From Naegleria gruberi (taxonomy: Eukaryota), in NCBI GenBank assembly GCA_000004985.1, contig GG738845.1: a DNA stretch of 64,000 bases. One strand, written 5' to 3'. The translations under genes were made by a program, and so were the position numbers. This document shows positions 59,471 through 63,870 of this stretch, piece by piece. Numbering within the stretch: position 1 is the first letter of the stretch; the number at the start of each line of letters is the position of its first letter. The notes under the pieces are model-generated. The model was not told the origin of the DNA. It saw only the letters and a list, made by a program, of their open reading frames with translations, and made no database searches.

Positions 59471-60691
59471 TTATATTTTACAAGAATTCAGGTATTGTCT
59501 TAATTCAGATTCAAGATCAGAAGCAGAAGGTCTGTCATGCATGACAGGATCAACCATGGCCATTAGAATGGCTCTCAGCTCTAAACTCATGGTTGCTGTA
59601 AGTTTTGCAACAAGTGGTCCCCAATCAGAGACTTTACATTGAGGATTTCTGGATGTGGCACTTTCATAAAAATCTGTGAAAACTTTTGGATTCATCAAGT
59701 ACAAAACAGTAGCTCCAAGCGAAAAAATATCTGCCTTTTCGTCAAAATATTTACATCCATCAATTTCTGGTGGTTTGAACATGGGCTCCAAATATGGAAG
59801 ATCATGTTTCAAATACTCTTGTCCAATAACATCAAACAGGCGATAAGCCTCTCTTTTGAAATGAACACAGTATTCGAAATCCTGAAGAACAAAACAAAGA
59901 AAGTTTTGAGATAGTTTTCCTCCTCTTCTTCTTACATTAGATGGACTCACATGCAAATGACAAACATTTCTCTTGTGTAGAAATCTTAGAGCACTTGCTA
60001 TGTCTAAAATTAAAAGACATACTGTAGTTTCATCCCATATTAGATCTTGTTCAATATTTTCTAGAGACTCCATTTCACAGTATATATTGTTATTGAATAA
60101 TATGAATGGTAATTGTTTGGAATAATCAGAATGAGAAAGAAGTAGGCCAATTATGTATTTCTCATTCTTTGTCAATTGTTTTAGTATTGTATTGCTTGCA
60201 ATGGAATACATTGTAGAATTGTTATTAGATTCACCAATATATTTCAACACTTTTCTGTTGAACAAAATACTTGTTGTTTCTGTGGAAAAAGTTGATGTTA
60301 AATTGTGTTTTGTCTTTGAGTGTTGATATTCAATGGACGATTCGATGGCAAAATCTGTTTTTTCTTTTTCGTTTTGGTTGGCCTTTCTGATAGGGCTATA
60401 AAGGGCTAGTCTCGTTGAAAGAACAGATATTAACAATAAAATGGAATCTAAATCTGTAGAGCTGAATTCCTTATGATACAACCGATAATTCTTAATAAAT
60501 ACAGTGGATTCTGTTAAAGTCTCAGAGTCCTCATCTCTTCCTGGTGTGCAAGTTTTGAAGGGACATGCATCCAAGATAAGTAAATGAATTTTGGCCTTAT
60601 TTACAATTAGAGCCATATTCTTTGTTTTGTTTTCGACCTCGTCCATGGAAATATTGGAATTCATTAAATTATTTACCAAAGAACTTTTCAT
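59471..60691 (-). CDS. protein-kinase-like protein, predicted catalytically inactive (pseudokinase); probably has additional 5' exon(s)
   Basis: The C-terminal ~200 aa have kinase C-lobe landmarks in the right order, but the catalytic loop 'HRDLKPSN' reads 'HLHVSPSNV', 'DFG' reads 'DFE', and 'APE' reads 'PPE'. 'DIFSLGATVLYLM' and a terminal 'HDRPSASDL' are retained. No GxGxxG loop is recognisable in the N-terminal half. The frame stays open for 49 codons upstream of ATG 60691 (to 60838). Confidence 0.55.
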   Translation of the reverse strand: MKSSLVNNLMNSNISMDEVENKTKNMALIVNKAKIHLLILDACPFKTCTPGRDEDSETLTESTVFIKNYRLYHKEFSSTDLDSILLLISVLSTRLALYSPIRKANQNEKEKTDFAIESSIEYQHSKTKHNLTSTFSTETTSILFNRKVLKYIGESNNNSTMYSIASNTILKQLTKNEKYIIGLLLSHSDYSKQLPFILFNNNIYCEMESLENIEQDLIWDETTVCLLILDIASALRFLHKRNVCHLHVSPSNVRRRGGKLSQNFLCFVLQDFEYCVHFKREAYRLFDVIGQEYLKHDLPYLEPMFKPPEIDGCKYFDEKADIFSLGATVLYLMNPKVFTDFYESATSRNPQCKVSDWGPLVAKLTATMSLELRAILMAMVDPVMHDRPSASDLESELRQYLNSCKI

Positions 60692-60894: not shown

Positions 60895-61764
60895 TTACCA
60901 ATGATATTTTGAATCAGTCATGGAGATTAAGTTTTTCATTATGGAATGAAATGAGATAGAAATGTCATTCTTTGTTGTTTCCTCATTCAAACAATCACTA
61001 ACAAACTGAAACACACTGCTCAAAACTCCAAGAAGCGATTTTTTGCTGCTACGAGGAAGGGAATCTGATATTTGTTCCAGCAAAATATCCAATGATTTGT
61101 CATTTGTAACGTTTGATGATTCCTCTTCCATTTTCGTTGCTAGTACAGACAATTGTTGAAAAATTGATTCTTCGAATAATTCATGATGTTTCAAGTTTTG
61201 ATCAAAACTTGAAAGATATATACCCAAAGCGCAACAAAAGGAATCAACCTCGGATTTTCGGAAAGGGGTTGAATCGAGGATGTGATTAAAATGTTTCTTT
61301 TCCTGCAATTGTTGACCCATGTTGGATAGGTATTGGGTTAATTGTTTGATAAGAATTTCAAATTTATCTTCATCCGATAATTCCTCACATTCGTTGACAT
61401 CATCAATAAATTTACATAGACTCTCCTCATGATGTTTACTAACCCTCTTTTTGAGCCTTAATTTGTTCAGTGTTAAGGGAGAGGGTTTTGGAGTTTGATG
61501 TAAGGATTGGATCGTATTTTGTTGTTTGGTGCTTTTTGTTGGGAATGATCCAAGCTTTTCCAAATTATCATTACTGCCACGGTTTTGAATTGGTATACCA
61601 AACATAATGGTGAATCTGTCCAAATGGTTTTTTGGTGAGTTAACAGATGTAGGTGATAGATTTGTTGAGAGTTTGTGTGAGAGTAATAATGGAGAGGTGT
61701 TCTCCCTTGTTGGAGTGTTTCCAACAAATGTCTTGGAGGTATGTTTGTGGAGACTCATCAGCAC
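60895..61764 (-). CDS. hypothetical protein (289 aa); possibly the upstream part of the kinase-like gene
   Basis: ORF with gene-like composition and a Ser/Thr/Pro-rich N-terminus. Its stop is embedded in TGGTAAGTT (donor-like). I could not find a phase-compatible acceptor to join it to the downstream kinase-like exon, so it is kept separate. Confidence 0.3.
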   Translation of the reverse strand: MLMSLHKHTSKTFVGNTPTRENTSPLLLSHKLSTNLSPTSVNSPKNHLDRFTIMFGIPIQNRGSNDNLEKLGSFPTKSTKQQNTIQSLHQTPKPSPLTLNKLRLKKRVSKHHEESLCKFIDDVNECEELSDEDKFEILIKQLTQYLSNMGQQLQEKKHFNHILDSTPFRKSEVDSFCCALGIYLSSFDQNLKHHELFEESIFQQLSVLATKMEEESSNVTNDKSLDILLEQISDSLPRSSKKSLLGVLSSVFQFVSDCLNEETTKNDISISFHSIMKNLISMTDSKYHW

Positions 61765-62120: not shown

Positions 62121-62375
62121 CTATTTCTTCTCCTCAAAGGCTTTCATGATTTCATCAATCTTCAACTCTTCAGTGGTTGCTGATTGATGTTTTGGTTTTG
62201 AATCTCCGAGAAAATCATCCATAAAACTCATGGAGGAGGTTGTTGAGGAAGCACTTTCGCTTGGTTTAACATTATTATTGGAGCTAAAAAAATCTCCCAA
62301 CTCATCACCTAACTTATTATGTGGTTGAGTGGTTGGTGTAGAGTTTGATTGAGTGGTAAAATTGAATTCTTCCAT
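62121..62375 (-). CDS. hypothetical small acidic protein (84 aa) with repeated D-x-(L)GDFF / DDFLGD motifs
   Basis: ORF only. It has two acidic Phe-containing short linear motifs ('DELGDFFSS', 'MDDFLGDS') that resemble adaptor/clathrin-binding DxF-type motifs. This is speculative. Confidence 0.25.
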   Translation of the reverse strand: MEEFNFTTQSNSTPTTQPHNKLGDELGDFFSSNNNVKPSESASSTTSSMSFMDDFLGDSKPKHQSATTEELKIDEIMKAFEEKK

Positions 62376-62564: not shown

Positions 62565-63870
62565 TTATTTCTTATTCCAAGCATCCATAACTTGTTTCAT
62601 GGTTTCTCCGAGTCTGGCAGGAGATCTGGAGACGACAACACCAGCATCTTCCAAAGCCTTAATCTTTGATGGAGCATCACCCTTACCACCACTGATAACG
62701 GCACCAGCGTGACCCATTCTTCTACCTGGTGGAGCAGTAACACCAGCAATGAAACCAACAACTGGCTTCTTAATTGGGTGATTCTTTAAGAATTCGGCAG
62801 CATCTTCTTCAGCTTGACCACCGATCTCACCAATCATAATAATACCTTCAGTTTCAGGATCATTCAAGAACAAATCCAAAACTTGAATAAAGTTAGTACC
62901 ATTGAATGGATCACCACCAATACCAATACAAGTGGATTGTCCCAAATTGACAGCAGTAGTTTGGGAAACAGCTTCATAAGTCAAAGTACCGGAACGAGAA
63001 ACAATACCAATCTTACCCTTTCTGTGAATGTATCCAGGCATGATACCAATCTTGGATTCTTCAGGTTTAATAACACCAGGACAATTTGGACCAACCAAAC
63101 GAATGTGCAAATTGTTTCCGTATTCAGGAGCAGAAGGAACCAATTTACGGAACAATTCAAGATCTGAACCCTTTCCAAGAACAGCATTACCCTTTGAACC
63201 AAAAGATGGTTTAAAGATTTCATCAAGAGTCATTCCTTGGGCAACTTCATCAGCAACTTGACGTGGTGCACCATATTTACGGAACATTTCCAAGTTCTTT
63301 TCATTGAGAGCTTGCTTGACAATGAGCCTGTGTTGTTTCCAATCATTATCATCATAAATTTTGTTTAAAGATTATTTTGATTGAATCATCATAATTTTCC
63401 ATATTTTCCAAGTAATTTAATAAATTCCAATTAATAATAATTGCTATTACTTACATATCATGTTGAGGAATACCTTCAGTAATACAAACAATCAATGGCA
63501 TTTCGGCTTCAATACTTTCCAAAATAGCTTGGGCAGCACCAGAAGGTGGAACGTAGATAACACTGGCAGAAGCACCAACCTTTTCTCTAGCTTCCTTTAC
63601 ACTAGCAAAGATTGGAAGGTCCATGTTTGGGTGAGTTTGACCACCTTTTTGTGGGTGAACACCACCAACCATCTTGGTACCATATTCAATAGCTTGTTTG
63701 GTGTGGAAAGTACCTTGCTTACCGGTAACACCTTGGCAGATAACTCTGGTATTCTTGTTGAGGAGCAATGTTCTCTTTTGAGTATTCTTAGTTAGGAGTT
63801 GTTGAACAATGCTGGCTTGAAGAGCAGATTTCTTGTTGGTGTTTTGGAAGAGTGATTTAGAGAGAAACAT
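62565..63870 (-). CDS. suclg1: succinyl-CoA ligase (succinate--CoA ligase) alpha subunit, mitochondrial, 2 exons, with an atypical internal insertion
   Basis: Exon 1 is 63455-63870 (presequence MFLSKSL... then the CoA-binding domain '[29 protein letters not shown]...[11 protein letters not shown]'). The 127-nt intron 63328-63454 is GTAAGT..ACAG, phase 2. Exon 2 is 62565-63327 ('[11 protein letters not shown]...[45 protein letters not shown]...GDPFNGTNF...MGHAGA'). The phosphohistidine-loop region and C-terminus are conserved with pig/E. coli SCS-alpha. About 60 extra residues lie between the two conserved domains. Confidence 0.85.

Follow-up and report, generated by a model that had tools for sequence, protein, structure and literature searches.

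A probable clade-specific insertion in the succinyl-CoA synthetase alpha subunit of Naegleria and Willaertia

We analyzed a stretch of 64,000 nucleotides of Naegleria gruberi DNA (contig GG738845.1 of assembly GCA_000004985.1; hereafter the window), whose minus strand encodes the alpha subunit of succinyl-CoA synthetase (SCS-alpha) near one end. The encoded protein belongs to the SCS-alpha family, with its core and conserved catalytic residues intact, and it carries 61 extra residues between its two domains. Based on comparisons among related genes, we put the probability at about 85% that this segment is an insertion that is genuine, translated, and specific to its clade, and that it is under purifying selection in an enzyme left intact. 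Its origin would lie in the last ancestor shared by Naegleria and Willaertia (Heterolobosea), and purifying selection would have kept it in that clade.

The gene and its extra segment

The gene is made up of the following parts.

62565-63870, minus strand: SCS-alpha gene, two exons; product of 392 amino acids
63455..63870, minus strand: exon 1, ATG at 63870-63868; residues 1-138 and two bases of the Met139 codon
63328..63454, minus strand: true spliceosomal intron, 127 nt, GTAAGT...ACAG, phase 2 within the Met139 codon, guanine-plus-cytosine content (GC) 20%
62565..63327, minus strand: exon 2, third base of Met139 to residue 392; TAA stop at 62567-62565
63111..63293, minus strand: probable clade-specific insertion, residues 151-211, 183 nt, 61 amino acids, ending in PEYGNNL
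62709..62711, minus strand: CAC codon of His345 in the MGHAGA loop, intact; H345 is invariant in 119 sequences

An earlier note, made from the letters of this DNA alone, had described the gene, and the spliced product of 392 residues reads exactly as transcribed there, from a gene lying where that note placed it. Exon 1 codes for a presequence-like N-terminus and the CoA_binding domain including ITEGIPQHD, and its 3' end reads ..CAT GAT AT. Exon 2 continues through the canonical linker helix, the insert, GPNCPG, the Ligase_CoA domain, and the catalytic His345, in that order. Both domains are recognized well above their Pfam cut-offs: PF02629 (CoA_binding) matches residues 38-133 with 98.6 bits against a cut-off of 22.3 (E 3.7e-28), and PF00549 (Ligase_CoA) matches residues 248-370 with 104.1 bits against 24.5 (E 7.9e-30). 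The sequences T131-P135 (ITEGIP) and G218-G223 (GPNCPG) and the residue H345 are all present and are invariant or at least 90% conserved in an alignment of 119 sequences, the best database matches. The GEIGG motif and Cys221 of GPNCPG are also intact. We take the functional roles of ITEGIP, the GPNCPG cysteine loop, and the MGHAGA histidine from established knowledge of SCS, in which this histidine is the residue that becomes phosphorylated.

The size of the extra segment was measured in the same alignment. The linker between Met139 and Arg215, from 'DM' to 'RLVGPN', is 75 residues long in N. gruberi, as opposed to 12-14 residues in 115 sequences; it measures 71 residues in Willaertia magna and at least 62 in two Naegleria open reading frame (ORF) fragments of exon 2. 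We defined the insert as the residues that are gapped in at least 95% of the other SCS-alpha sequences, a definition that, depending on the alignment, fixes the boundaries to within about 3 residues. A comparison with all chains of the Protein Data Bank (PDB; phmmer) agrees, since human SUCLG1 aligns to residues 31-146 and 214-383 of the query and places just 5 of its own residues opposite residues 147-213 (67 amino acids). The 61 extra residues, located between the Pfam matches, thus bear out the earlier proposal of an insertion of about 60 residues between the two domains. None of the 115 other SCS-alpha sequences has a counterpart, so the description of the insertion as unusual for such a conserved enzyme also holds. 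In Naegleria, a stretch of canonical sequence lies between the true intron and the insert. The insert itself carries three conserved blocks, EM[FY]RKYGxPRQ, P.[FY]G..GNAVLG..SD..L[FY], and EY.N..H[IV].

Coding status and the public gene model

In order to separate coding sequence from intron, we compared the orthologous DNA of N. fowleri (L002), a Naegleria-like ENA contig (L005), and Willaertia (L004). A phase-2 intron, AT|GTAAGT...AG|G, interrupts the Met codon of 'QHDM' at the same position and in the same phase in all four genes. Its length is 127 nt in N. gruberi, 676 nt in N. fowleri, 109 nt in L005, and 42 nt in Willaertia, and the intron sequences have no likeness to one another. The insert begins just a few codons beyond this intron; each of the four genes reads through it in an open frame, and its sole indel is a 12-nt (4-codon) deletion in Willaertia. 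The ratio of nonsynonymous to synonymous substitution (dN/dS, by the Nei-Gojobori method) is 0.12-0.44 in the insert, at dS values of 0.5-2.7, and 0.035-0.07 in the core for the same pairs. The GC of the insert is 39%, close to the 41% of the exons and roughly double that of the true intron, in agreement with the earlier statement that the block is in frame and has a protein-coding composition. Across the five insert-bearing sequences, 29 of the 62 columns of the insert show no variation, and a further 8 vary conservatively.

Because the adjacent intron varies in length while the insert stays in frame, and because of the 12-nt indel, the dN/dS values, the exon-like GC, and the invariant columns, we consider the insert to be coding. 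These comparisons indicate that it is translated sequence under purifying selection, weaker than in the core but clear. One peptide that would report on its translation is the tryptic peptide of N. fowleri, TLDEIYKPSFGK.

The earlier note had reasoned that the segment contains no AG at which it could be spliced out. This was mistaken, as 9 AG dinucleotides are present, the last of them ending at 63164. The conclusion drawn from it nevertheless stands, because with the last AG at that position every in-frame GT-AG removal would leave at least 28 residues between QHDM and GPNCPG; the segment is therefore not removable whole as a canonical intron.

One of those 9 AGs is the acceptor used by the public model of the gene, which treats the region as follows.

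63164..63473, minus strand: 'intron' of XP_002683450.1/EFC50706.1, 310 nt, G|GTATTC...TTCAG|AT

Removing 63473-63164 reproduces the 331-residue public protein (XP_002683450.1 / EFC50706.1 / UniRef100_D2UXY5), which comes from the same locus and is identical to the 392-residue product outside the disputed segment. It does not have the stretch containing GIPQHDM, nor insert residues 151-193, two thirds of the insert. If this model were correct, or if non-canonical splicing took place, the segment would be absent from the mature protein. The boundaries of the public intron do follow the GT-AG rule, and a product of 331 residues is nearer to the usual length of SCS-alpha. However, its removal would delete G133, I134, P135, Q136, D138, and M139, each at least 90% conserved in the alignment, and neither N. 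fowleri (TCT GAT) nor Willaertia (TCC GAT) has its acceptor AG. The segment also has the GC of an exon, a signature of purifying selection, and a frame-preserving indel, whereas the real intron cannot be aligned between species; no in-frame GT-AG pair gives back the canonical linker, and the Willaertia gene model keeps the insert. We therefore regard the loss of the segment by splicing as highly improbable. Since it deletes a conserved motif, uses an acceptor that relatives have not kept, and treats a conserved ORF as an intron, the public 331-residue model is probably a mis-annotation.

Mis-splicing of the public model is also the likely reason that the insertion escaped notice; our literature search on Naegleria together with succinyl-CoA synthetase or ligase, and on SCS-alpha insertions, returned no description of it in the papers searched. 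The reference N. gruberi protein in RefSeq, UniProt, and EukProt probably lacks part of the CoA-binding motif, and analyses that used it would be affected.

Three further candidates for the segment were tried and set aside. As a spliceosomal intron it fails because, with all GT/AG pairs enumerated, none restores the canonical linker, and its GC of 39% and dN/dS of 0.12-0.44 fit poorly with an intron. Inteins have at least about 130 residues, begin with Cys or Ser, and end in His-Asn followed by Cys, Ser, or Thr; by inspection, this segment has 61 residues, starts with Leu-Glu, and ends ..NNLHI followed by Arg. An exonized ancestral intron was rejected on the grounds that the gene of the heterolobosean Acrasis kona is free of introns in and around this site and that a canonical stretch separates the Naegleria intron from the insert.

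Distribution and origin of the insertion

The earlier note had looked to dictyostelids and other Amoebozoa for orthologues. The lineage is a different one, since the closest matches are N. gruberi itself (XP_002683450.1/EFC50706.1), then Willaertia magna KAL9644500.1 and N. fowleri CAG4718702.1. The insert is found in five independent sequences: N. gruberi, N. fowleri (L002), two Naegleria-like environmental sequences from ENA contigs (L005/P0129 and P0243), and Willaertia (L004/P0122). A Logan contig (run ERR1078381) is 100% identical across the insert. The W. magna protein, a 383-residue 'hypothetical protein', shares the intron position and the insert. Of 63 insert residues, 42 are identical; the W. 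magna version is shorter by four codons, and the intron there measures 42 nt.

No insert is present in Acrasis kona or in the 114 other eukaryotic and bacterial SCS-alpha sequences aligned. A. kona SCS-alpha also lacks the 'DM' intron. The earlier note had named, as a finding that would count against it, orthologues showing so long a linker to be normal for the lineage. The long linker is normal within Naegleria and Willaertia, and it is specific to that clade against all other sequences compared. A single origin in the common ancestor of these two genera is the simplest reading of the alignment, with sampling inside the insert-bearing clade covering Naegleria and Willaertia.

In a search set up so that insert-bearing sequences would come out on top, the weakest full-length insert-bearing match scored 303 bits, followed by the partial P0001 at 241 bits and the insert-less P0244 at 236 bits, and ordinary SCS-alpha sequences started at 188 bits. 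A word-index search with a 122-residue query gave proteins of at most 214 residues, and the 240-residue insert-bearing ORFs needed longer queries.

We made several side observations on the genes of these relatives. The A. kona gene (L006, 1001-2059) has small introns totaling 84 nt in its N-terminal third, with no intron position in common with Naegleria and Willaertia. The 676-nt intron of N. fowleri (L002 2287-2962) contains ATGATGATG-type and CAACAA simple repeats. An N. fowleri-like contig (L003; ENA ERZ2098899 NODE_828, positions 1-2851) agrees with L002 (99.9%) only in the part that starts about 150 nt upstream of exon 2, and carries unrelated genes (NADAR, PapD-like) in place of exon 1, which points to either an assembly chimera or a rearrangement within the long intron.

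The earlier note had also pointed to a direct repeat inside the insert, encoding E[LM]FRK twice. Its two copies are as follows.

63275..63286, minus strand: 12-nt direct repeat TGTTCCGTAAAT, copy 1, coding for (M)FRK(Y)
63143..63154, minus strand: 12-nt direct repeat TGTTCCGTAAAT, copy 2, coding for (L)FRK(L), 132 nt downstream of copy 1

The repeat is real, with two copies in the window where shuffled sequence leads one to expect 0. Relatives do not preserve it, however: in N. fowleri, L005, and Willaertia the second copy is not kept at the nucleotide level, and the second E[LM]FRK reads LYSK, LYHS, or LFKK in relatives.

Such a repeat could mean that the insert is a recent duplication, the footprint of a mobile element, or a translational-bypass cassette, with the two copies serving as a target-site duplication or as take-off and landing sites. 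In favor of these possibilities are the exact match of two 12-nt copies 132 nt apart and a marginal internal protein repeat in N. gruberi (24 of 2,000 shuffles). However, none of the three other species shows a significant protein repeat (97, 1371, and 502 of 2,000 shuffles), and the nucleotide repeat is not conserved in the relatives whose DNA we compared. Given the codon usage of this gene, identical codons for F-R-K would occur twice with a probability of about 0.16. The sequence between the copies is under purifying selection, no other copy of the insert lies within the window (tblastn and blastn), and an insert older than the Naegleria-Willaertia split is not recent. The direct repeat is probably coincidental, and we give a cassette bounded by it the least credence of any explanation weighed here.

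Capture of a module from another protein family, such as a TPR-like hairpin or an AHNAK-type repeat, is a further conceivable origin. An exhaustive phmmer search with the 67-residue segment against 1.84 billion representative proteins returned two matches only, both to repeat proteins: a 6907-residue AHNAK-like protein (E 6.4e-21, 13 stretches) and a 668-residue TPR-kinase protein (E 2.5e-05, 3 stretches). In each case the score adds up matches to a short motif present in many copies (PSFG.KG and KGNAL..LG), at about 7 and 14 bits per stretch. No Pfam family, TPR or other, matches the insert at E up to 1, and the predicted structure described below has no helix over GNAVLG, where helix A of a TPR would sit. 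For these reasons we do not take the matches as homology, and capture from such a family appears extremely unlikely. A Walker-A reading of GNAVLGKGS was rejected on inspection, as the sequence fits GxxxxGKG and not GK[ST], and Willaertia has Ala in place of the Lys.

Elsewhere in the protein, a small second insertion is also common to Naegleria (including N. fowleri) and Willaertia.

63625..63630, minus strand: Pro81-Asn82, after His80, reading 'THPNMDLP' as opposed to 'THLGLP'

The spacing from His80 to Pro86 is 3 residues in 111 of 117 sequences, 5 in N. gruberi, and 6 in Willaertia; 4 unrelated sequences have other insertions there. As for the surroundings of the gene, the SCS beta subunit is not encoded in the window, and three long minus-strand ORFs lie downstream at 59471-60691, 60895-61764, and 62121-62375, the first of which (406 residues) has the kinase-like motifs HLHVSPSN and DFEY.

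Predicted structure, role, and comparison with known enzymes

In order to place the insert on the enzyme, we modeled the N. gruberi protein in AlphaFold2 with the 119-sequence alignment, obtaining a mean predicted local distance difference test (pLDDT) score of 82, a predicted template modeling score of 0.80, and pLDDT above 90 in the core. Foldseek superposes the model on pig, human, and E. coli SCS-alpha with target-normalized template modeling (TM) scores of 0.88-0.94, among them 1euc_A (E 5.4e-42, TM-score 0.91) and E. coli 1jkj_A (TM-score 0.94, root-mean-square deviation 1.9). The helix preceding the insert, which normally ends near residue 148, is predicted to run from 136 to 157 through LEMFRKY with a pLDDT of about 75-90. 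Short helices follow at 163-168, 173-177, and 194-201 with pLDDT 38-64, and the core is re-entered at the strand 215-217. A separate model built for the Willaertia protein has the same arrangement, with a helix at 131-152 (about 75-90) and short helices at 164-167 and 186-192 (pLDDT 32-50). The earlier note had asked whether the insert forms a surface loop or a domain; the helix extension is predicted at fair confidence, and the remainder of the insert at low confidence. The low pLDDT need not indicate disorder, because the alignment is just five sequences deep there.

In these models the insert follows the linker helix and precedes the strand RLVGPN, lengthening the helix by some 2-3 turns and then making an excursion of about 50 residues, with its three conserved blocks, before returning to the core. 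In the SCS fold of the E. coli and pig structures, this site is a helix-to-strand connection of the Rossmann-type CoA-binding domain, and the C-terminal end of the strand carries the GPNCPG cysteine at the CoA thiol. Because the far end of the RLVGPN strand carries Cys221 at the CoA site, an insert at the strand's N-terminal end would protrude from the face opposite the CoA and phosphohistidine sites. We infer that the insert would be a non-catalytic surface appendage, with less certainty than we attach to its coding status. The appendage would pack on the enzyme and stabilize it, or contact the beta subunit or another mitochondrial protein. A more specific version, in which it is an ordered docking or regulatory module that provides new binding to the beta subunit or recruits a mitochondrial partner, is speculative, and we think it rather improbable.

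Several points weigh against the interpretation developed here. The insert evolves several-fold faster than the core, and the confidence of AlphaFold2 is low over most of it, with pLDDT of 32-64 across both models. Neither the spliced 392-residue protein nor the 395-residue protein of N. fowleri has an exact copy in a collection of 15 billion proteins, and most of the insert is missing from the sole public N. gruberi model. The proposed placement of the insert relative to the beta subunit and the active site is deduced from the fold topology of the E. coli and pig structures.

The main rival to a role as a surface appendage is that the insert is translated and functionless, a flexible, tolerated loop carried as a neutral passenger. 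This explanation disputes the inferred role only, and leaves the reality and translation of the insert untouched. The low confidence in two species is what one would expect from such a loop, as are a dN/dS 2-12 times that of the core, the 4-codon deletion in Willaertia, and the lack of a Pfam family or homologue. On the other hand, 29 of the 62 insert columns have remained invariant across the Naegleria-Willaertia split, over which synonymous sites are saturated (proportion of synonymous differences 0.72-0.88), and they fall into three unbroken motif blocks, with hydrophobic and aromatic residues among those conserved. The dN/dS of the insert is well under 1 in every pair, and the low pLDDT may merely reflect alignment depth. 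On balance we judge the neutral loop to be possible but unlikely, and a non-catalytic surface appendage is our preferred explanation.

Few enzymes of central metabolism are as constant in length as SCS-alpha, whose linker varies by only two residues in 115 of the 119 sequences of our alignment. The insertion would therefore be a clear example of a conserved catalytic core that has accepted a new surface element, fixed in a whole clade, and it could serve as a molecular marker for Naegleria and Willaertia. N. fowleri is a lethal, 'brain-eating' human pathogen. The segment is present in this species and not in human SUCLG1, making it a potential diagnostic epitope or selectivity handle. If the docking module were true, it would represent a lineage-specific interaction or quaternary structure for an enzyme of the tricarboxylic acid cycle, and a pathogen-specific surface in N. 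fowleri.

Compared with known enzymes, the N. gruberi protein is 52-57% identical in structural alignments to E. coli SucD and mammalian SUCLG1 (1SCU/2SCU, 1EUC, 6G4Q). The solved SCS-alpha structures have a turn of about 5 residues where Naegleria has 61 extra residues, and Naegleria also has the 2 extra residues after His80. In its distribution, the insertion belongs with the conserved signature indels: it is flanked by conserved sequence, present in all sampled members of the clade (Naegleria and Willaertia), and absent outside it, with five insert-bearing sequences against 115 without. Such indels have been used for Plasmodium and Piroplasmida (PMC6678196), and those tabulated in that work are 1-2 residues long, including a 1-residue deletion in SCS beta. 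Relative to the indels tabulated there, the Naegleria insertion, at 61 residues and with conserved motifs of its own, is unusually large for its category.

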